Shown: positions 3,897-48,118 of the stretch, piece after piece
Layout: each line of letters opens with the position of its first letter
Numbering within the stretch: position 1 is the stretch's first letter
Origin: Escherichia coli
Lineage (GTDB): Bacteria; Pseudomonadota; Gammaproteobacteria; Enterobacterales; Enterobacteriaceae
DNA length: 64,000 nucleotides
Direction: 5' to 3' (one strand)
Assembly (NCBI RefSeq): GCF_044324875.1
Contig: NZ_CP172185.1
The notes under the pieces: model-generated
What the model was told of the DNA's origin: nothing
What the model saw: the letters and a program-made list of their open reading frames with translations, nothing else
Database searches by the model: none
Position numbers and translations under genes: made by a program

Positions 3897-3932
3897 TCAT
3901 GACTCCATCAATCGAACGCTGCCGCGGCGTAA

Positions 3933-4919
3933 CTAGTTGCCAGAAGCCAGCGAGGTTAGTTGCGCAAGCAGTTTCGCTGGTTCATCACCTGAAAGCTGTG
4001 CGTCTACAGGCAAATACCACCAATTTTCTTCTGCAAAGGCCCGGCATTTCACCGCATCTTTTTCAGTCATTACCAGCGTTTGCCCGGCGTTTACCAACGC
4101 GCTGACATCCGCATGGTTCAAAGACTGATGATCGGCCAGCGGTACACATTTTTCCGGTTGTACGCCGCACATCTTCAGCGTGGCAAAAAAGCGCGGCGGA
4201 TGTCCAATCCCCGCCATCGCCACTACATGTTCAAGCTGAGCAACGTCACAACGCGTACCGGTACGTAAATTCACCGCCTGACCCGGCAGCAGATGCATGG
4301 GGATTTCACCGCTGCGGGGGACACCGCCGTTGACGATTACCGCATCAACCGACTTTAAGCGCCCCGCTCGCTCACGCATTGGCCCCGCCGGCAACCACCA
4401 ACCATTGCCAAAGCGACGCACACCATCAATAACGACAATTTCCACATCACGCGCCAGACGGTAATGCTGTAAACCGTCGTCGGTTACGATGATCTGCACA
4501 TCAGGGTGTTGCGCCAGAATGGCTTTTACCGCATCAGAACGCACGGGAGAAACCGCAACGGGCGCGCCAGTGCGTTGATAAATCAACACAGGTTCATCAC
4601 CCGCCTGTGCTGTGGTGGTATCTGCCGACAATAACAGCGGATAAGATTCAGCCTTACCACCATATCCCCGCGATACGACCCCCACGCGAATACCGCGCTG
4701 TTGCAGCTGTTCCACCAGCCAGATAACGACCGGGGTTTTTCCGTTGCCGCCTGCGGTGAGATTACCAACCACGACAACCGGTACGGGGGCACGCCAGGCG
4801 CGCTTCAGTTTTAGTTTATAGCAAAGACGGATCGCGCCACTCACCAGGCCATACAACCAGGAGAGTGGCAGCAATAGCCGCCACAAAGGGGATTCACCAG
4901 ACCAGATTTTTTCGATCAT
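3933..4919 (-). CDS. lpxK: Tetraacyldisaccharide 4'-kinase
   Basis: 328-aa ORF with P-loop [14 protein letters not shown]; overlaps msbA stop. Confidence 0.96.
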
Positions 4920-6700: not shown

Positions 6701-8965
6701 CTACCCGTTATCCACTGGCACGCCAAACCACTGATGATACCAACGAGGTAAAATTTGCTCCCTGAGGCTGCTAATCCGCCAGCCTTGCGCTGAAAAATTG
6801 ACCGTTATTTGCCCCTGATGAGGAGTATCAAGCCACTTATAACCCTGTTGTTGATAGCGATGTTTAACTTTGCTTGAGGGCAGTCGCCATGCGTTATAGC
6901 GCGATGCCGATGCGAGTGCCACTTTTCCATTCACTCGCTGAATTAATGGCAACGATGATGAGGTATTACTGCCATGGTGAGGTATCTGAAGTAATGTTGC
7001 CTGCATTTGCTGCCAGTAACGGCTTAGCATCTTTTGTTCAGCGGGGGCTTCAATATCACCGGTTAGAAGAATGCTATTCGTCCCGTCATCAACCTTAACC
7101 ACACAGGAATGGTTATTTCCTTTATCGTTGCTACCTTGTAAAGGCCAGTGCGCGCTGAAACGCAATCCTTGCCATTGCCACGCTTCGCCACGCACACAGG
7201 GCTGATGATGTTCCCAGTTTAACGGACTTCTGATCCATAACATCGGCCATGTATGCAATATTGAGTCCAGCCCTCCCCGGTGATCCAGATGTTCATGACT
7301 CAGAATAACGCCTTCCGGTTCAAGATTATGCCAGTGGAGCCAGGGGATAATCAGTTGTTGCCCACTATCTCCTTCAGGCCAGGCCAGTCCCGTGTCATAG
7401 AGAATCGCTTTGCCGTTTCTGGCTATCACCATTGCCAGCCCTTGCCCGACATCAAGCATGTACACTTGCCACTCGTCAGGTCGAGGTTTTTGCCACAGCG
7501 GCCAGCACATCAGCAAGCCTCCAGCCACACACATTGCTGGCAACGTTCGCCAGGCGTTTAATCGCCATACCACCAGTAAGAACCATGGGGAAAATGATAG
7601 CCATTGCCAACGTTCAGCAATGTTGATCCACCCTTCCGGCAAACTCTTTAACCCCCAGAAAAGTAAAGCCAAAGACCGGTCGGCAAGAAAGCATAACCCC
7701 TGTTCCAGGATTAACGGCCCGCTTAAATGCACAACCATCGCGGCGAGGATTAATGGAACCGTGATAAATGTCACCAGGGGAATTGCAAAAAGATTTGCAA
7801 TAAACGAGGTCAGACTAATGCCATGAAATATGACGATTTGCACGGGCATAAGCAGGAGTGTGATTCCCAGTTGCAGATGGATGAGGGAAACAACCGCACG
7901 CAATACCGGCGGCAGCTGCCACTCAGGACAGGGAAACCACTGATACCAAAAAATCAGTGCCGCGACCGCAGCGGCAGAGAGCCATAAACTTTGCGAGAGA
8001 ATGGCAACAGGATCCATCAGCAAAATTGCCGCCAGACAACATATCCACACATCCCAGCCACTCCATTGTCGCCCACTTAACTTAAGCATTCCCCACATGG
8101 CAAGCGCCACCACGGTACGCAATGCAGGAGGTTGCATCCCAGTCAGCCAGGCATAAAAAGCAGCACAGCAGATTCCGCCAATTAATGGCATTTGCCAGTG
8201 GATCCAGCGCCCAGGCAGAAAAACTTGCCCACCGCGAATGAGTCCGGCAGCCAGCAACGCCGCAAAAGCGATATGCAATCCCGATATCGCCATTAAATGC
8301 GCCGTTCCAGTATCGCGCATGATATTTTTGATTTCTTTGGGAACGGATAACCGTTCCCCCATACCTAAACCAAGAATAACCGCATTCCACGGATAGGGTT
8401 GCAGCGTTGTTTGTAATGACGCCAGATACTGTGCACGCAAGCTACAATTCGGTTCAATGACACTTGCCTGCAGAAAGCGGCCGGTCAGCGGCTGATGCTG
8501 GGCAATGGCATAACGCTGGCTATCAAAGCTGCCATCATTAAGTTGGCCATGAACTGCACGAACTTTGAGTTTCATTGACCATAGTTGTCCGGCACAAACC
8601 GCTTGCGGGAGATATTCACCATACAGCACGAGGCCTGGCGCAGGGAATATACGTCGACCTTGTAGATGAGTGATTTGACCGTAATGAGTGGTCATGCCGT
8701 CAGTAGCAGTGATCTCAACTATTGCATCCTGCGTCGCGCCAGTTAAGGTTTCTCCTGCCCACAAAATTTGCTTTGCCGCTGATATGCCCCAAAGAAAAAA
8801 CAGCAACGTCAGCGCGATATAACGGACGGCTTTAACAGGAATAAATGCCAGTACGCAGGCGAAGACAGTCAGAAACGCAAGGGTTAATGTCCCAGGCAAT
8901 TGGGGCAAAACCAGCAACGGAAAAATTCCGCAAATTATGCATACGCCGACTGTCGTTATTTTCAT
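6701..8965 (-). CDS. ycaI: ComEC/Rec2-family inner membrane protein YcaI
   Basis: Start chosen at internal ATG (MKITTVG) preceded by GGGAGGGG SD; ~754 aa polytopic membrane protein with C-terminal metallo-beta-lactamase-like HxHxDH. Confidence 0.88.
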   Translation of the reverse strand: MKITTVGVCIICGIFPLLVLPQLPGTLTLAFLTVFACVLAFIPVKAVRYIALTLLFFLWGISAAKQILWAGETLTGATQDAIVEITATDGMTTHYGQITHLQGRRIFPAPGLVLYGEYLPQAVCAGQLWSMKLKVRAVHGQLNDGSFDSQRYAIAQHQPLTGRFLQASVIEPNCSLRAQYLASLQTTLQPYPWNAVILGLGMGERLSVPKEIKNIMRDTGTAHLMAISGLHIAFAALLAAGLIRGGQVFLPGRWIHWQMPLIGGICCAAFYAWLTGMQPPALRTVVALAMWGMLKLSGRQWSGWDVWICCLAAILLMDPVAILSQSLWLSAAAVAALIFWYQWFPCPEWQLPPVLRAVVSLIHLQLGITLLLMPVQIVIFHGISLTSFIANLFAIPLVTFITVPLILAAMVVHLSGPLILEQGLCFLADRSLALLFWGLKSLPEGWINIAERWQWLSFSPWFLLVVWRLNAWRTLPAMCVAGGLLMCWPLWQKPRPDEWQVYMLDVGQGLAMVIARNGKAILYDTGLAWPEGDSGQQLIIPWLHWHNLEPEGVILSHEHLDHRGGLDSILHTWPMLWIRSPLNWEHHQPCVRGEAWQWQGLRFSAHWPLQGSNDKGNNHSCVVKVDDGTNSILLTGDIEAPAEQKMLSRYWQQMQATLLQIPHHGSNTSSSLPLIQRVNGKVALASASRYNAWRLPSSKVKHRYQQQGYKWLDTPHQGQITVNFSAQGWRISSLREQILPRWYHQWFGVPVDNG

Positions 8966-40761: not shown

Positions 40762-40860
40762 TGCGTATTCCGCTCTATTCGATCACGGATTGGCATCGAA
40801 GTCCGATCAGCGATTCGCATCCATTCGATCAACCGGGAACTTAACTTTTTCTACCGCTTT

Positions 40861-41616
40861 TTAACGCGTTTTTTCGCTGCTTTCCACTACCGGGGGATTT
40901 TTCCTCAGTGACTCTCCCTGAAGGACCACTCGGTGTGAGTTATGTACCAGTCTGTCCAGGATGGCATCTGCTGTTGTTGGGTTCTCCATCAGACCATGCC
41001 ATTTATCTACCGGGAACTGGCTTACCACTATCGTGCTGCTTTGTCCGTAACGATCCTCTATGAGCTCCAGAAGGTCATTACACTGGGCGTTACTTAACTG
41101 TTCCAGCCCCAGATCGTCCAGGATTAGAACCTGTATTTTTTGCAACTGTTTCAGATATTTCAGCCAGCTGCCATCAACACGTCCCTGAGCCAGTTGTTCC
41201 AGTAATCGCCCGGTTCTACAGTACCGGACGCTGTGTTTCTGTCGACATGCCTGTTCGCCCAGCGCATTGGCTATCCAGCTCTTGCCACATCCTGTCGGAC
41301 CGGTTATCAGCAGGTTTTTCCTGTGGGTTATGTAGTGGCCGTTCAGCAGTTCTCTCATCTGTTCAGCCCGCAGACCTCTTGAGGCCGGATAGCGCAGCCC
41401 TTCCGGTGTTGCCTGGTATTTCAGGCCGGCATTTTTTCTCAACCGTGCCACACGGCTGTTTTCCCTGCTCAGAAGCTCGTCATCAACCAGCAGCGTCAGC
41501 CTTTCCTCGAACGACAGTTCGTCGTAGGTCTGAGGCGTTTCCCGCTGCCGTATCAGGCTCCCGGCCATCGCCGGGAGTTTCAGTTGGGTCAGTTTGTTTA
41601 ACAGGTTATCACTCAT
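40861..41616 (-). CDS. istB: IS21-family helper ATPase IstB
   Basis: Start MSDNLLNKL; Walker A GPTGCGKS; 251 aa. Confidence 0.93.
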   Translation of the reverse strand: MSDNLLNKLTQLKLPAMAGSLIRQRETPQTYDELSFEERLTLLVDDELLSRENSRVARLRKNAGLKYQATPEGLRYPASRGLRAEQMRELLNGHYITHRKNLLITGPTGCGKSWIANALGEQACRQKHSVRYCRTGRLLEQLAQGRVDGSWLKYLKQLQKIQVLILDDLGLEQLSNAQCNDLLELIEDRYGQSSTIVVSQFPVDKWHGLMENPTTADAILDRLVHNSHRVVLQGESLRKNPPVVESSEKTR

Positions 41617-41632
41617 ACTGTTGTTCCTTCTG

Positions 41633-43168
41633 TCAGTGGTAGTAGCCCGGACCACGCAGGTTTTCATGCTCTGAAGCATATGCCGGATGTTGTTCGCCCT
41701 GGCGGGATAATGGAAGCTCCAGGTTCTCCCGATGGTGACGCAGCAGATTGTCGATAAAGCGTCTGTCAGGGGCGTTATAGTGCAGGGCAACGTAACAGGC
41801 CTTTTCCAGCCGTTCCGGGCCGTATTTTTTCTGAAGTGCCAGCAGCCCCAGAACTGCACGATAAGCCAGTTCCGGATGGGGTTTTGCCTTCAGCATGGAT
41901 TCAACCACCCGGCCTGTGGACGGGCCCGTACGTTTTCCCTGCTCGATCAGGCGTTCCGGTGTCCATGTCCCGTGCTGCCGGTGGCGCTCTGGCATGTGAA
42001 GCGGATTGGTTGTGTGTTTATATTCATGTGTGCTGCGCGGATGTTGCGCCACACACTGCCCCTTGTGCCAGAGCTGTACCACCGACTGCCCCGCCTTCAG
42101 TGACAGACGCTGACCGACCAGTTCGTGTGGAACGGAGTACCAGTGACGGGCATATTCAACGTGGTAGTCAGGGCCAACCTTCACAGCTTTGTATTCCGTG
42201 TATTCATAAGGTGCCAGAGGCAGCGGAGAGAGTGCTGGCGCATCCAGTATGCGGAAGCGTTCTGCACGGGTTTGATTGCCGTACCCCTTCATTGGCCGGT
42301 TATTCATGTCTGTCAGTAACTCCCTAAGGCGCGCATTCAGCGCCCTGAGCGTGTGGAAGGTTTCATTACGGATGCGGGCAAGAAGCCATCGTTCAACGAT
42401 GAGGACGCCGTTTTCTGCTTTTGGTTTATCTTTAGGTTTGCGTGGTCGGGCCGGGATGATAACCGTGCCATAGTGCTCAGCCAGTGCCTGATAACTGTCG
42501 TTGATGACAGGCTCATATCGATCGGCCTTTTTCACTGCGCTTCTGAGGTTATCGGGGATGAGCAGCTTCGGTACGCCGCCCAGGAAGGTCAGGCAACGGC
42601 TGTGGGCATTTAACCATGACATCATGTCCTGACCTTCGCACGCTTCAACGTAGGTATAGTTGGACGCCCCCATTACGGCCACGAAGATTGCCACGCGGCG
42701 TATCTCACCGGTGTCCGGATTAATAACAGGAACCGTAGGACCACAGAAGTCGATAAAAAGCTTTTCGCCGGCACGATGCTCCTGGCGCATGGAGAGACGT
42801 CGCGTTTTTTTCCACTCCCGGTAGCAACGGCAGAAGTGCGAGTATCCCATCGCTTTGTTACCCGCCTGTGCCTTGTATTCCATCCACAACAGTTGCCGCG
42901 TCACACCTGGTTTTCTCATTTCCGTATCGAAGTACAACATGTCAGGCATTACAAGCTCTGATGCAAAGGTGTCTTTGGGCGGAAAAATGAGTTTCTCCAG
43001 CGTGTCATGGGATATATCAGCAGGTAATGGCCATGACAGAGAAGAGGCTTTGAAGCGGGCAAGAACCTCAAAAACGGTTGAGGCGCTGATGTGTAACGTC
43101 AGTCCGATACAACGGTTAGTCAGCTTCTTGTCGAACTTGAGCTGAAGGATCTTAAAACAGGTTTCCAT
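41633..43168 (-). CDS. istA: IS21-family transposase IstA
   Basis: Start METCFKILQ with AGGAG SD; DDE integrase core region; 511 aa. Confidence 0.92.
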   Translation of the reverse strand: METCFKILQLKFDKKLTNRCIGLTLHISASTVFEVLARFKASSLSWPLPADISHDTLEKLIFPPKDTFASELVMPDMLYFDTEMRKPGVTRQLLWMEYKAQAGNKAMGYSHFCRCYREWKKTRRLSMRQEHRAGEKLFIDFCGPTVPVINPDTGEIRRVAIFVAVMGASNYTYVEACEGQDMMSWLNAHSRCLTFLGGVPKLLIPDNLRSAVKKADRYEPVINDSYQALAEHYGTVIIPARPRKPKDKPKAENGVLIVERWLLARIRNETFHTLRALNARLRELLTDMNNRPMKGYGNQTRAERFRILDAPALSPLPLAPYEYTEYKAVKVGPDYHVEYARHWYSVPHELVGQRLSLKAGQSVVQLWHKGQCVAQHPRSTHEYKHTTNPLHMPERHRQHGTWTPERLIEQGKRTGPSTGRVVESMLKAKPHPELAYRAVLGLLALQKKYGPERLEKACYVALHYNAPDRRFIDNLLRHHRENLELPLSRQGEQHPAYASEHENLRGPGYYH

Positions 43169-43406
43169 AGTGCTCCTGGATTTTCTCTTTCTGGACATTG
43201 ACGTCTCCACTGGTTTAAACACGGCAATGGAGACTGTGGTGAAAAGAGTTAATTCCCGGAGTGACTGGCAGGATGCCAATCAATGATCGGAAGCATGCCA
43301 AATCGTGATCGATTGTGATGCCAAACTGTGATCGGAGATGGATGCCAAATCATGATCGATTCGAATGCCAAACTGCGATCGATTCAGATGCCATTTTGCA
43401 TCAGTC

Positions 43407-43641
43407 ATCAGATATTCCATTCGGAATGGATATCAACGACGCCTGTATGCTCCAGGTATACCGCATAGCTCAGGCTGCACTACAGGCAAAACCGTCAGAT
43501 GGACTGGTTAGAGCAGTACGTTTCTATGAACTGGTAAAGCGTGAGAATCCGCCAGTCGAAACCGGAGCATGGCAAGACGCTGTTGACTGGGTGCTCAAAG
43601 AGGCTTGTCAGGTTGTAAACACTGGCATCAAAGGAGACTGA
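43407..43641 (+). pseudogene. 3' fragment of the IS-interrupted phage gene
   Basis: In-frame continuation SDIPFGMDINDACMLQVYRIAQ...; reconstructed intact ORF about 104 aa. Confidence 0.8.
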
Positions 43642-43642
43642 T

Positions 43643-43852
43643 ATGGCTATTGCCGCAAGTTACACCATGCATCTCTATTGTGATTGTCGCCAGTGTACAA
43701 ATGGTAAATATCAAACGCCAGACTTCGGTGAATATATCGGTACGTCATGGACTGGCTGTGCAAAAGAGGCGCGTAAGGATGGCTGGCGAATAAGCAAAGA
43801 CAAAACTCGTGCTTTTGCGCCCGGGCATAAAGTTTTGAGGATTAACAAATGA
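43643..43852 (+). CDS. Small Cys-rich (zinc-ribbon-like) protein, 69 aa
   Basis: AAGGAG SD; CxC-x2-C plus distal Cys. Confidence 0.5.
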   Translation: MAIAASYTMHLYCDCRQCTNGKYQTPDFGEYIGTSWTGCAKEARKDGWRISKDKTRAFAPGHKVLRINK

Positions 43853-44250
43853 CCACTATAACCAAAGAGCGACTACTGACAATCAGGCAGTGGCGCGAAA
43901 CATACGGACCTGGTAGCAACGTTGTACTGCCAGCCGAAGAAGCGGAAAAACTGGCACGGATTGCTTTGGCATCGCTGGAAGCAAAACCAATAGGTGCTTT
44001 CCACATTGCAGAACAGCAGGTCGATGGCACAAGTGACTACATCAAGGATGGGGAGTACCGCTTGCTGACATCTGAAGAACAAAAGATAGCCCAACTTTTA
44101 GGCGATGCATGGAACCTGTATTTTACATTGCCAGTTGAGCATCCAATGGGTAGAGATGAATTTTGCCGGGCAATTCATCATTGCCAAAATATGGTGTTGG
44201 CACGCCCTGCCATCAGGGCGCTGGCCAGTAAGGGGCAAGGCTATAAATAG
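43849..44250 (+). CDS. Hypothetical phage cargo protein (133 aa)
   Basis: ATGA overlap with previous ORF; GAGGA SD. Confidence 0.55.
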   Translation: MTTITKERLLTIRQWRETYGPGSNVVLPAEEAEKLARIALASLEAKPIGAFHIAEQQVDGTSDYIKDGEYRLLTSEEQKIAQLLGDAWNLYFTLPVEHPMGRDEFCRAIHHCQNMVLARPAIRALASKGQGYK

Positions 44251-44257
44251 ATGAGCA

Positions 44258-44284
44258 AAACGCCCTCCTCCAGGGCGTTTATTT
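44258..44284 (+). terminator. Rho-independent terminator after cargo operon
   Basis: ACGCCCT-CCTCC-AGGGCGT followed by TTATTT. Confidence 0.55.
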
Positions 44285-44287
44285 CAA

Positions 44288-44314
44288 TGCACAATAGTGC
44301 ACAAATTTGCACAA
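44288..44314 (+). repeat. Three tandem 10-bp-phased TGCACAA repeats (candidate operator)
   Basis: TGCACAAtag TGCACAAatt TGCACAAttt at 44288, 44298, 44308. Confidence 0.6.
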
Positions 44315-44738
44315 TTTTTTTGAACGACTTTTTGCCCTTCCGGCCCGTGTGGCGTCTGGATCCGTCGGGGATCCGTGCGTGCACGAAAAAAGGCCTTTTT
44401 CTGCGCGCAGGTGACGGGGGAACAGCCCGCGTTTCAGGGGGTAAATAGCATTCCCTGAACGATGTTGCAGTGACACAACAGAATGGCTGTATTTCTCACG
44501 CTGAGCGTGAAAAAGACGTAAGGGCTTTTGATTTGATGGGGTGAAAGATAAGGCCGTCAAAATCGCACTGAGGCAGCGAGAATATGTCGTCAGAGTTGCG
44601 GGGTTGCGTAAGCATCCGCCCGGCGATGATGGCTACAGGGCTGGAGATGTTGTGAAATTATCTGAAGGAATAACCAGCTTGCAGGAGAACCCGGGCAAAG
44701 TCAGAATAGCGGCAGGCATCAACTCAAAAGAGGATAAT

Positions 44739-45245
44739 GTCATGAGCCACTTTAATGATTTATGCCAGATCAATCGTGAAGCTGAAGAAAAACGCGCTGA
44801 GGCAGCTCAAATTTTGCGGGATGAAGCGGCAAGGCTGATTGATTTCTATGAAGAATGGCTGGGGCTTCCATCCATGTACTGGGAAGACGATGATGGCGAC
44901 CTGCACCGCTACGTGGAGACAGGCTTGCCATGTAAGACAGCGGCGGATTTTAGTCCTCTTTCAGTCCACAATATCGCATCTGCACCAGACAATATTTTCC
45001 GCATGGCCGTGCGAACCTGGGTTAAGTCATCTGACAGCAGCTACCCGGTAAGCGTGGTTATTGCACTTGAATTATATTCAGTAGATGCGGAACGGGTGTC
45101 TCTGAGAGTCCGGGTGGAAGACGATATTTCTGTTCGCGTATTTATCAATAAACCCAGCGAAGAAGCCTGGGGCGATGTTGTTATGCACATGAAAAAGCAC
45201 ATCGCTAATCACCTGAAAAAGCGAGCGCCATCAGCACTTCGTTAA
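44739..45245 (+). CDS. Hypothetical protein (168 aa; possible GTG-extended 234-aa form from 44541)
   Basis: AGAGGA SD before ATG 44739; preceded by ~490-bp structured leader. Confidence 0.5.
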   Translation, partial: VMSHFNDLCQINREAEEKRAEAAQILRDEAARLIDFYEEWLGLPSMYWEDDDGDLHRYVETGLPCKTAADFSPLSVHNIASAPDNIFRMAVRTWVKSSDSSYPVSVVIALELYSVDAERVSLRVRVEDDISVRVFINKPSEEAWGDVVMHMKKHIANHLKKRAPSALR

Positions 45246-45260
45246 GCAGAGCTGGAGAGT

Positions 45261-45285
45261 CGGGGCATAAATTTTTTATGCCCCG
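45261..45285. terminator. Bidirectional hairpin terminator between 168-aa gene and portal gene
   Basis: Perfect palindrome CGGGGCATAAA-TTT-TTTATGCCCCG. Confidence 0.6.
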
Positions 45286-45311
45286 GCGAAGCAGCAGACA
45301 AGCGAAGCGCG

Positions 45312-46367
45312 TCAGGATATGGGCTGGGTGTCTAACAGTGCGTAAGGGTTAAAACGGATCACCTCTTCGCCCAGCCAGTCGTTGACGTGTTTCATTGCTT
45401 CCATGACGGGCATCAGTTCGTTAATGGCAAACACACGGGCTGCCTTCTCCACATCCCCGAATGACCCCTTCTCACCCGGCATGGCCCCCATCAGCTGCGG
45501 CGGTACACGGTGCACGGACAGCACATCATCACGCGATGCAGCCTTGACGTTCATGAACTCATCCTTTGCGGTGATTTGCTGAAACGGCAAAATCTGTACG
45601 CCATCCTTACCACCTCCCGCCGCGTGGATGAGCAGATTTTTAAACGCCCCGCCACCACGCGCGCTTTGCAGTGTTTCCCGCAGTTTTTCCATGCTTTCAC
45701 GGTCAACCTGCGCCGCACCGATGTAGACAATACAGCCCGCGTGTGAGCCGTTATCGTAGTAGAGCTTGCGGAAGATATCGGCGGAATGTGACAGGCTGGC
45801 AGACAGCAGGCCGCCCAGGTAATCCGGCATCCCGTAAATCTCCTGGTTGATATCAGGATTCATCAGGTGGCATATCGTCCCCTCACGAAAGCGGTACTCT
45901 TCCTGTCCTTCCTGTATATACCACCATGATTTCATATCGCTGCCACGTCGCATGTATTTCGCCAGCGCCCGGCGCAGGGCCAGCGGTTCGCCAAGCATGT
46001 TGCGCCGCAGCTCAAGACAGGCATTACCGAACACAAACCAGTCCATCGCCACCCCGGCGAACTCCTGGCGGGACAGCAGAGGATGTGGAATATAGCAGCC
46101 CAGCAGCACATTACGTTTGAAGCTGAGCGCCGACTGGTGCCAGGACGTCTGGCGGGCAGCCCGTGCCAGTCCGTACCAGTCAACGGGCGTTTCAAACCAC
46201 CGCCCGTTGTCGGCGCAGTACATGCTGTCCAGCAGGTCGGCCCCTGACAGCCGGTAAGGTCCTTCAAACGTGAAGGCACTCAGTGTCGGGTCGCTTCGCA
46301 GGGAATCCGCAAGGCTGCCCTGCGCTGCGCGGGCGTTCGTACGTCGTTGTTTATTTTTTCTGCTCAT
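45312..46367 (-). CDS. Phage portal protein (P2 gpQ-like)
   Basis: 351 aa; position and sequence type of P2 Q, adjacent to terminase. Confidence 0.9.
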   Translation of the reverse strand: MSRKNKQRRTNARAAQGSLADSLRSDPTLSAFTFEGPYRLSGADLLDSMYCADNGRWFETPVDWYGLARAARQTSWHQSALSFKRNVLLGCYIPHPLLSRQEFAGVAMDWFVFGNACLELRRNMLGEPLALRRALAKYMRRGSDMKSWWYIQEGQEEYRFREGTICHLMNPDINQEIYGMPDYLGGLLSASLSHSADIFRKLYYDNGSHAGCIVYIGAAQVDRESMEKLRETLQSARGGGAFKNLLIHAAGGGKDGVQILPFQQITAKDEFMNVKAASRDDVLSVHRVPPQLMGAMPGEKGSFGDVEKAARVFAINELMPVMEAMKHVNDWLGEEVIRFNPYALLDTQPIS

Positions 46368-48118
46368 CAGAACTCCGTAACACTGAAGGGGGCGGCATCA
46401 TGTTCACCGCCGACAGGTTCGTTGATAACGGCCAGCATGGTGGCCCATGCAAGATCGCCATGGCTTACGCCTCTTGCGCGATCTGTTTCGTAGGTGATAA
46501 ATCCGGCCTGCGTTTTTGTTTTGCGTACCGCGTTAAAGGCGCTCACCAGTTCGCGCTCGCTGCGGTCGTACTCCCACCGCCCGGCGCGCATGAGCTGCAG
46601 CATCTTCAGAACCAGCGTGCGCTTTGATGACAGGGTGAAGGTGTAGGGAATGGCTGCCGGAAAAAAGCGCTTCACAATCTGATACACCGCATCCCCGTGA
46701 CCGCCGGTTACGTCAATACCGATATGCTCAACGTTATAGCGAAAGGTGAACTCTTCAATCACCTTCGCCTGCGCCTCAAACTCCAGCCCCTGCACCCGCC
46801 GCGTCTCCACGGTGCGAAAACGCCCGCCCGGTACGGCTGGCGGCACCACCACGACAACCGCCCCGCTGTCACCGTTCCCGCTACTGCCGTTGGCGTCGTA
46901 CCCAATCCACACAGGGCGGTTCCCCATCGGACGCGGTGCAAACGGCTTCCAGTCCGGCCACTCGTCGTATCCGTCAACACCGCAGCCAATCAGGATATTC
47001 AGGTTAAATGCCGATTCCCCTTCGCGAGCAAATTCACACATGTAGAGATTGCGGAACTCGTCTTCAGTGTTATTGCGCCGGATTTTGTCAATGTTGGTTA
47101 ACGTCCATCCCTGACTGACCACATCTTCCAGCGTCACAATTTGCCGCCAGATATAGTCAGGACAGATAAGGCCGTTATGAAGCGCATTCCAGCTCACATC
47201 AAAATGCTGACGTTTATGAGTACGAAGCCCTTCATTCCAGTGATCGCCGTTCCAGTATGCATACGCCTCATGTGTTTCACTTGATGGCGTGGAAAAATAG
47301 GTACACCGCAAACCATCCAGCGTTGCCATAGCAGCAGCCACCTTGCGCAGCTCTGCGAAACGCCCCGTCCAGAAAAACTCATCAAAATACAGATTCCCTG
47401 TGTACGCTTGCGCGGTGGCCGCAGAAGTGCCGAGAAAATGCAGCTCTGCACCGTTGGAGAGGATGACTTTATCGCCCCCTTTCAGTTCCACATCAACTTC
47501 AGATGCAGCCTTCTGAATAATGCTTTTAAACTGGAGCGCCTGACGACGAGACGCAGACAAAAAAATCTGGTTACGCTGGTAAGGTTGTGCCACATCGTCA
47601 CGCAGCGCCATCAGCAGCGCTTCCTGCGCAAAATACCAGGTCGCCCCAATCTGGCGGGATTTCAGGATCATCCTGTCAGTAATTCCGGCACGCTCACAGG
47701 CACCGATAGCATCAAGCCATTTGCGCTGGTGTCCGGCCAGCCTGTCGGTAATTTTTTCCCGCAGCGCCGCGATCTGTTCCGGCGTGAAATGATTTTTGCG
47801 TTTTTTCGCCCGGCCTTTCTTTCCTGTTGCCGTCTCATCCGGCAGACCGTCATGCAGCTTTTTAAGCTGACGGGTCAGCAAATCAATTTCCTTAAAGTCC
47901 CCGCCTGTTTTATTCTGTTTTTCCGTGAGCTGAATGAGTCGCGCATCCATGGACTGCGTGACACGCTGAACCGGGGGCGTCTCATCCCACTGGTCGCGTT
48001 TTTTCCACGAATGGATCGTGTTCTGGTTGATACCCATAAGGCGGGAAATTTCCGCAACAGGGTAACCCTGCCAGTACAGCTGGCGTGCCCGCTGGCGAAC
48101 AAATGTATCCTGAATCAT
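46367..48118 (-). CDS. Terminase large (ATPase) subunit (P2 gpP-like)
   Basis: 583 aa; N-terminal HTH, ATPase/nuclease-type body; divergent from scaffold gene. Confidence 0.9.
   Translation of the reverse strand: MIQDTFVRQRARQLYWQGYPVAEISRLMGINQNTIHSWKKRDQWDETPPVQRVTQSMDARLIQLTEKQNKTGGDFKEIDLLTRQLKKLHDGLPDETATGKKGRAKKRKNHFTPEQIAALREKITDRLAGHQRKWLDAIGACERAGITDRMILKSRQIGATWYFAQEALLMALRDDVAQPYQRNQIFLSASRRQALQFKSIIQKAASEVDVELKGGDKVILSNGAELHFLGTSAATAQAYTGNLYFDEFFWTGRFAELRKVAAAMATLDGLRCTYFSTPSSETHEAYAYWNGDHWNEGLRTHKRQHFDVSWNALHNGLICPDYIWRQIVTLEDVVSQGWTLTNIDKIRRNNTEDEFRNLYMCEFAREGESAFNLNILIGCGVDGYDEWPDWKPFAPRPMGNRPVWIGYDANGSSGNGDSGAVVVVVPPAVPGGRFRTVETRRVQGLEFEAQAKVIEEFTFRYNVEHIGIDVTGGHGDAVYQIVKRFFPAAIPYTFTLSSKRTLVLKMLQLMRAGRWEYDRSERELVSAFNAVRKTKTQAGFITYETDRARGVSHGDLAWATMLAVINEPVGGEHDAAPFSVTEF

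Follow-up and report, generated by a model that had tools for sequence, protein, structure and literature searches.

P2-type phages package from circles. For P2, 186, PSP3 and P4, 19-nt 5' ends and a 55-bp conserved core are described in the accounts that PMC3931495 and PMC5694545 give of Ziermann & Calendar 1990. Further cohesive ends within the P2 family start with GGYGNNGCGGGG (PMC3931495, PMC5694545, PMC5247547), and those of phiRSA1, AP3 and Smp131 follow the pattern GGYGNNGNGGGG (PMC5694545, PMC5247547, PMC3931495). The interval between cos and the portal gene Q takes up foreign genes, for example ctx in phiCTX and ORF1-4 in phiRSY1 (PMC5694545), and a hotspot between gpA and gpQ was described by Rousset et al. 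2022 (PMC9122126). In lambda, the nicking site (cosN) is flanked by phased short recognition words with a bend-prone element between them (cosB, arranged R3-I1-R2-R1), where the words are the sites of the terminase small subunit.

Here we analyse a window of 64,000 nucleotides of Escherichia coli DNA and describe, within a P2-family prophage, a probable P2-type cos site, from a clade that is common yet lacks annotation there, together with a moron at a known hotspot. Specifically, we read positions 44288-44446 as the cos of a P88-like P2-family (Peduoviridae) prophage, followed by a 581-bp moron, and assign this reading a probability of roughly 0.82. Both are ordinary kinds of feature and require no change to current concepts; modestly new are the conserved four-repeat geometry with its lineage-specific words and the phrog_5091 alleles beside cos. 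An earlier note on this DNA had considered that the region might contain a packaging site, a regulated accessory gene, or both, of which "both" is borne out, while "regulated" finds no support.

Genomic setting

The region is located in a P2-family prophage, where the portal gene Q and then the terminase gene P follow on the minus strand:

45312-46367, minus strand: portal gene Q
46367-48118, minus strand: terminase gene P, next after Q along the window
from 48132: start of the scaffold gene

The assignment of Q is based on the ORF listing and on the neighbourhood in a near-identical prophage of E. coli TUM9803, the order of which is int, C, cox, gene A, cargo, cos region, Q, P, O, N, M. With gene-A-side cargo on one side and the convergent portal and terminase genes on the other, the region is positioned as in P2 and 186. 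The closest phage records, with ~90% identity, are P88, P88_4B11 (Xuanwuvirus), 500465-2 (Gemsvirus) and Citrobacter phiSM, and none of the matching phage records carries a cos annotation at the related sequence.

Architecture of the proposed cos module

The cos module (44288-44446) lies between the terminator of the upstream cargo operon and the left-end DNA of P88-like phages; the elements of this stretch are as follows:

44258-44284, plus strand: intrinsic terminator of the upstream cargo operon, with stem CGCCCT/AGGGCG followed by TTTATTT (dG -15.2 kcal/mol, z -3.98)
44288-44314, plus strand: three TGCACAA repeats on a 10-bp phase, with copies starting at 44288, 44298 and 44308
44315-44321, plus strand: T7 tract directly 3' of the third repeat, conserved in alignments of TGCAC-type cos sites
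44358-44374, no strand: GGATCC-N5-GGATCC palindrome (GGATCC-GTCGG-GGATCC), in the spacer between the distal and proximal repeats
44380-44386, plus strand: fourth, proximal repeat TGCACGA, at -30 from 44410
44385-44409, no strand: A6-GGCC-T5 palindrome followed by TGCGCGCA, directly 5' of the predicted nick
44410-44428, plus strand: predicted 19-nt cohesive end GGTGACGGGGGAACAGCCC, the cosN equivalent, with a register possibly starting from 44408
44429-44446, plus strand: GCGTTTCAGGGGGTAAAT, the right edge of the cos module, where homology with a satellite-like island (L028) stops
44447-44665, no strand: left-end non-coding DNA of P88-like phages, ~90% identical to P88, 500465-2 and P88_4B11

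The terminator that the earlier note had placed 5' of the region is present, and the 186 terminator t95b occupies the equivalent place, 5' of the 186 repeats. The phased TGCACAA triplet reported in the same note is likewise confirmed and stands out statistically: the 64-kb window holds four copies of TGCACAA against 16 expected, three of these four form the triplet, and such a triplet appeared in none of 100 shuffles. We propose that the distal triplet (44288-44314) constitutes a terminase-recognition element of cos, and it is possible that the adjoining T7 tract (44315-44321) introduces an intrinsic bend.

All three palindromes listed earlier, namely the GGATCC pair, GAAAAAAGGCCTTTTTC at 44385-44401 and CACGCTGAGCGTG at 44497-44509 within the left-end DNA, are found at the locus, and folding of 44285-44741 as RNA yields z = -2.7, so that the density of palindromes is real. 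The GGATCC palindrome is kept in P88-type relatives, and other lineages carry different GC-rich inverted repeats at that place; the palindromes, as distinct from the repeats, vary by lineage and are probably structural features of the spacer. Immediately 5' of the 19-mer, the sequence (T/C)GCGCGCA is present in 105 of 117 IMG/VR loci, these 117 being the IMG/VR contigs that carry the 19-mer together with enough upstream sequence.

Geometry compared with mapped cos sites

The cohesive ends in the window are predicted from sequence, whereas those of P2, 186, PSP3 and P4 are experimentally annotated. For comparison, we used the annotated cohesive-end records of these four, joined their right and left ends and anchored them at the start of the 19-nt end. 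The alignment with P2 and 186, which the earlier note had put forward as a check, reveals four TGCAY repeats at near-equal offsets: TGCAC is located at -122, -112, -102 and -30 from 44410 in the window, and TGCAT at -123/-124 (-120 in PSP3), -111, -101 and -29 in P2, P4, 186 and PSP3. In P88, the TGCAC offsets are -123, -113, -103 and -31. Aligning the G-runs moves the predicted nick 2 nt upstream to 44408, and taking this position as the start makes the P88-type offsets identical to those of P2 (-111, -101 and -29); the register of the nick is uncertain by ~2 nt (44408-44410). In the literature that we searched, we found no account of what the distal repeats might do in P2, 186 or P4.

The likeness to the cos sites of P2, 186, PSP3 and P4 extends beyond the four TGCAY repeats and their near-identical offsets to the position beside Q and P, the terminator upstream, the sharing of the module with a satellite and the predicted G-rich end of ~19 nt, where the window 19-mer fits the family pattern GGYGNNGNGGGG. 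The window is nevertheless distinct from the P2 type in its repeat word, which is TGCAC rather than the TGCAT of P2, P4, 186 and PSP3, in its gpP, which is only 47% identical to P2 gpP, and in the distance from cos to Q, which is 883 bp as compared with 167 bp in P2. The end itself is identical to the real P2 cosL GGCGAGGCGGGGAAAGCAC at only 13 of 19 positions. This count, already given in the earlier note, is accurate but does not by itself serve as an argument for cos: 13/19 is at chance level, and because 17 other sites in the window match P2 cosL at least as well (≥13/19, one of them 14/19), the match is not significant when taken alone. The case for cos rests on the geometry and the comparative evidence rather than on this match.

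As in lambda, the predicted nicking site is accompanied by phased short words with a possibly bend-prone element, but the likeness is without sequence homology, and the window repeats are located on what would form the right end of the mature genome. While the R3-I1-R2-R1 words of lambda cosB are sites of the terminase small subunit, the binder of the window repeats is only putative.

A 581-bp insertion with a phrog_5091 gene

Between the left-end DNA and Q, the window carries a segment that is foreign to P88-type phages:

44666-45246, plus strand: 581-bp insertion, replacing 6 bp of P88-type sequence
44679-44707, plus strand: promoter-like motif TTGCAG-N17-CAGAAT (TTGCAG at 44679-44684, CAGAAT at 44702-44707)
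44742-45245, plus strand: gene for a 167-aa accessory protein of phrog_5091, with Shine-Dalgarno sequence GAGGA at 44730-44734 and stop codon at 45243-45245
45259-45287, no strand: perfect hairpin between the ORF and Q, with a 13-bp stem (dG -28.9, z -6.5)

The boundaries of the insertion are defined by two-piece matches in 14 of 14 phage relatives. In P88-type phages, the counterpart of 44251-44665 (415 bp, ~89% identical) directly abuts the hairpin and the portal gene, and the ORF is missing. The gene is thus lacking from close relatives with clean junctions, as is characteristic of a moron. Among 5,426 complete E. coli genomes, 1,141 have sequence related to the leader and only 28 have the arrangement with the ORF, and the leader region is therefore independent of the ORF.

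Since the hairpin is also resident in P88-type phages that lack the ORF, we consider it the counterpart of P2 tQ. It had been described as a perfect bidirectional hairpin against Q, and the 13-bp hairpin is indeed there; however, in contrast to P2 tQ, the stem is not followed by a U-tract on either strand, such that it could plausibly act as a bidirectional terminator, though not one of the canonical type.

Read from its ATG, the ORF encodes 167 aa, and not 168 aa as stated previously. The homology search proposed in the earlier note identifies the protein as a member of phrog_5091 (E 3.5e-52), with profile positions 1-163 of 164 aligned from the ATG. Homologues with 32-87% identity start at the same Met, and the ATG is further supported as the start because they are 164-169 aa in length. 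An alternative is that the real product is the 234-aa GTG form (44541-45245) or another of the long forms called by PGAP and JGI, which would represent a fusion of a P88 gp22-like ORF with the inserted gene. The frame does exist and is open from 44541, and gene callers give forms of 213, 234 and 236 aa. However, the PHROG profile (164 positions) aligns only from residue 67 of the long form, the DNA 5' of the homologues is unrelated, and the GAGGA located 7 nt before the ATG at 44742 favours the short form. In addition, the N-terminal extension is without coding signature, the substitutions within the 42-codon GTG ORF from 44541 (44541-44667; P88 gp22) being distributed 9/13/11 by codon position, so that this ORF is probably no gene. 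A long product is therefore disfavoured, and we consider it improbable.

In the window, the 42-codon ORF that is annotated in P88 continues in frame into the inserted gene. We also note that identity to P88 drops from ~90% to ~65% across 44590-44650, just 5' of the insertion, which suggests that what was exchanged extends beyond the insert or predates it.

The promoter-like motif recurs beyond the window. CTTGCnn-N17-CAnAAT is found ~35 nt before the ATG in 7 of 7 cos-portal loci (window included) within DNA that is otherwise unrelated, and is missing from the two loci in which the gene resides inside the cargo operon. The window copy agrees with the sigma-70 consensus at 7 of 12 positions, which is below the scan threshold, and a sigma-70 scan of the plus strand returned no promoter at the default threshold. 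Judged by sequence, it is a promoter-like motif that may act as the moron's own promoter.

The phrog_5091 family is small: it forms 21 clusters when grouped at 90% identity, has 7 representatives in a set of 1.8 billion proteins, and its named members are all from enterobacteria. Ten further homologue loci that we inspected (32-75% identity) are all P2-like prophages, in eight of which the gene is directly beside and convergent with the portal gene, the remaining two having it upstream of cos inside the cargo operon; a cos-like element is present 5' of the gene in 7 of 7 portal-adjacent loci checked. Searches of the 167-aa protein against Pfam, NCBIfam, PADLOC, PDB sequences and BFVD gave no match, and the supplements of Rousset et al. 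contain no entry for it. Its AF2 model (pLDDT 87, pTM 0.82) consists of helix, sheet and helix. Its structural matches are confined to bacterial proteins in AFDB50 that are uncharacterised and, at a weak level, to FP domains and capping proteins, where the FP domains of PI31 and Fbxo7 and the actin-capping protein subunits are similar in structure only. From location and divergence, one may guess at an accessory protein-binding role in mobile-element conflict.

A P2-like prophage in GCA_946406005.1 (L023; protein named Serratia marcescens in NCBI) has its phrog_5091 gene upstream of cos, flanked by direct copies of the terminator-like sequence GCCATTGCGCGGCCATTTTT at 3897-3915 and 4517-4537 of the locus, which hints at cassette exchange by recombination at terminators.

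Conservation and covariation of the proposed cos module

More than 120 IMG/VR contigs carry the exact 19-mer. It recurs, together with the repeat layout and within otherwise diverged flanks, in Enterobacter phage phiT5282H, which resembles the window over 44281-44431 only, and in a Salmonella prophage. TGCAC is found at exactly -123, -113, -103 and -31 in 81 of the 117 IMG/VR contigs introduced above. Variant ends in the same frame, GGTGACGGGGGGCAAGCCC, GGCGAGGCGGGGGAGCAAT, GGCGACGAGGGAAGGGCGC and GGCGAGGCGGGGGAGCAAG, are carried by Klebsiella Kp4845-1, an Erwinia prophage, a second E. coli lineage and a metagenomic contig, and connect the window type with the P2 type.

In an Edwardsiella tarda prophage, the word is TGAAC at -113 and -103 (two distal repeats) as well as at -31 (proximal repeat). 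Because two distal repeats and the proximal one are all TGAAC, this covariation, seen in a single lineage, suggests that one protein reads all of the repeats. A search for more TGAAC-type cos sites recovered the same Edwardsiella lineage only. The N-terminal helix-turn-helix of gpP differs between the repeat-word groups, few lineages having been compared.

The same search also returned unrelated AT-rich viral contigs of IMG/VR (L154-L192) with arrays of 5-7 GGTGAACAA repeats, which are probably origin iterons of another phage group.

A satellite-like island in E. coli NCTC9082 (L028; NZ_LR134080.1, 4006155-4020320, beside hpt/can) shares only 44288-44446 with the window (80.8% over 44288-44452), and not the left-end DNA at 44447-44665. 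Its cos, at 7001-7166 of the locus, has repeats at -123, -113, -103 and -31 and a 19-mer with one mismatch. P2 and P4 likewise have only cos in common (PMC9122126). The island encodes an Icd-like protein, a toprim primase, an integrase, an ogr/delta-like protein, a 236-aa hypothetical protein, a 423-aa P2-family major capsid protein and MazEF, and neither a portal nor a terminase gene was found in it. Taken together, conservation, geometry and the satellite delimit a cos module of ~160 bp.

The presence of a capsid gene in this island is unusual for a P4-style satellite.

It might be argued that the TGCACAA repeats are apart from packaging and represent an operator, an iteron or a centromere, for example a parC-like site served by the ParM/ParR of P88, or a site of replication or regulation, given that iterons and parC sites typically show direct repeats with a 10-bp phase and that P88 has parM and parR ~0.8-2 kb upstream. 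Against this, the distance from the repeats to the 19-mer is fixed whatever the cargo, parMR is missing from the window, phiT5282H and the satellite, equivalent TGCAT repeats are found at the same offsets in P2, 186, PSP3 and P4, and the proximal copy changes with the distal copies in Edwardsiella, such that a function of this kind appears very unlikely. Least credible, to the point where we give it almost no weight, is that a structured 5' leader RNA (riboswitch or attenuator) controls the ORF, with the G-rich element coincidental and cos elsewhere, for example at 45246-45311: the density of palindromes, the RNA fold and the chance-level P2 match would suit it, but the ~490-bp structured leader of the earlier note is present at ~90% identity in P88-type phages without the ORF and is conserved in ~1,100 E. 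coli genomes without it, an Rfam scan of 43000-46000 gave no match at E <= 1, the region has a terminator 5' of it and no plus-strand promoter-like site was found for it, the conserved promoter-like motif of the ORF is 35 nt from the ATG within the insertion, and 45246-45311 contains the hairpin only and is not common to the satellite. A cos site of the P2 kind remains our preferred reading of 44288-44446.

The cos-Q interval as a small hotspot

We surveyed the interval in 111 IMG/VR contigs that contain both the 19-mer and a portal gene, measuring the distance from cos to the stop codon of the portal gene:

190-251 bp: 30 contigs, without insert
285-314 bp: 60 contigs, without insert
~886 bp: 3 contigs, with the window-type gene
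896-928 bp: 18 contigs, with a different protein (~174 aa where examined), its gene being inserted beyond the hairpin

The second protein also belongs to phrog_5091 (E 1.4e-67; hhalign probability 97%), which is therefore present in the cos-portal interval of 21 of the 111 contigs, as two deeply diverged alleles. Because both inserts are phrog_5091, the cos-Q interval represents a small hotspot with diverged alleles of one family. The window gene resembles the cargo of phiCTX and phiRSY1 and of the gpA-gpQ hotspot in being a small accessory gene between cos and the portal gene that is missing in close relatives, with a promoter-like motif on one side and a putative terminator hairpin on the other. 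It is distinct in that most of the described cargo resides on the gene-A side of cos and in that phrog_5091 matches no PADLOC model, the PADLOC defence-protein models giving no match for either allele.

The second allele, as seen at +310 to +930 from the 19-mer in L051, L037 and L134, begins MVINYKQLREK and has its own TTGCCG-N17-CAAAAT motif and terminator; in L134 the reading frame is interrupted.

Proposed packaging mechanism

By analogy with P2, we suggest that a terminase composed of gpM and gpP, the latter with an N-terminal helix-turn-helix, would recognise the four TGCAC repeats, that is, the three distal copies on a 10-bp phase with their T-tract and the one proximal copy ~30 nt from the cut. 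The terminase would then introduce nicks with a stagger of ~19 nt and thereby generate a 5' cohesive end near GGTGACGGGGGAACAGCCC, starting from 44408-44410. The next 220 bp correspond to the non-coding left end that is customary for this phage clade. They are followed by the insertion at 44666-45246, a moron that comprises a putative weak sigma-70-like promoter and the 167-aa gene and that ends just before the resident hairpin. For the protein, a member of a fast-diverging family that is habitually located between cos and the portal gene, the likeliest role would be that of an accessory protein-binding factor in phage-phage or phage-host conflict.

A more far-reaching proposal, which we offer as speculation and think rather unlikely as a whole, is that the TGCAY repeats act as a cosB-like code that sets terminase compatibility and that phrog_5091 is a new factor in phage-phage or phage-satellite conflict. 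Should this be true, the pairing of terminases with the Peduoviridae genomes and satellites that they can package would depend on the word (TGCAT, TGCAC or TGAAC), and the repeat words would define helper-satellite compatibility groups. A cosB-like repeat code is not discussed in the literature that we searched.

With related sequence in 1,141 of 5,426 complete E. coli genomes, finding cos allows these genomes to be correctly oriented, and its location permits a guess at the satellites that P88-type phages can mobilise. The ~160-bp module defines a cassette for P88-type cosmids, the words TGCAT, TGCAC and TGAAC provide a simple test of DNA recognition by P2-type terminases, and screens for accessory functions of prophages could include the phrog_5091 gene as a compact candidate.

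Contig ends, deletions at the 19-mer and neighbouring cargo

Among the records of the phage collection, none has its first or last position at the 19-mer, and the literature searched contains neither the 19-mer nor a P88 or Xuanwuvirus cos nor mapped ends for the clade. The ends of IMG/VR contigs were considered as a proxy for physical ends and rejected, because assembly breaks at repeats shared between prophage and satellite give the same pattern; L065 (33,959 bp) has an end 5 nt away from the 19-mer and L071 (30,023 bp) one at 11 nt, and several others stop within 150 nt. Two phage records have deletions of 5-7 nt in or at the 19-mer, with GGAACAG gone in Chuche (L020, PP925824.1) and CCCGC in P88_4B11 (L001/L008, LR595891.1), and the prophage copies are intact. 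Artefacts of assembly or base calling where the DNA physically ends may account for these deletions.

On the gene-A side of cos, the window differs from the TUM9803 prophage at two places. The first is a 2.64-kb insertion (40762-43400) with 6 bp duplicated at the junctions, the minus-strand ORFs of which are of IS21 type and encode a transposase resembling IstA and an IstB-like protein whose Walker A motif reads GPTGCGKS. Because this IS21-type insertion interrupts a cargo gene, the N-terminus of the 108-aa ORF at 43315-43641 matches none of its phage protein families. The second comprises an extra 330 bp (43906-44235) inside the 133-aa cargo ORF at 43849-44250, and represents another indel polymorphism in the gene A-cos hotspot.
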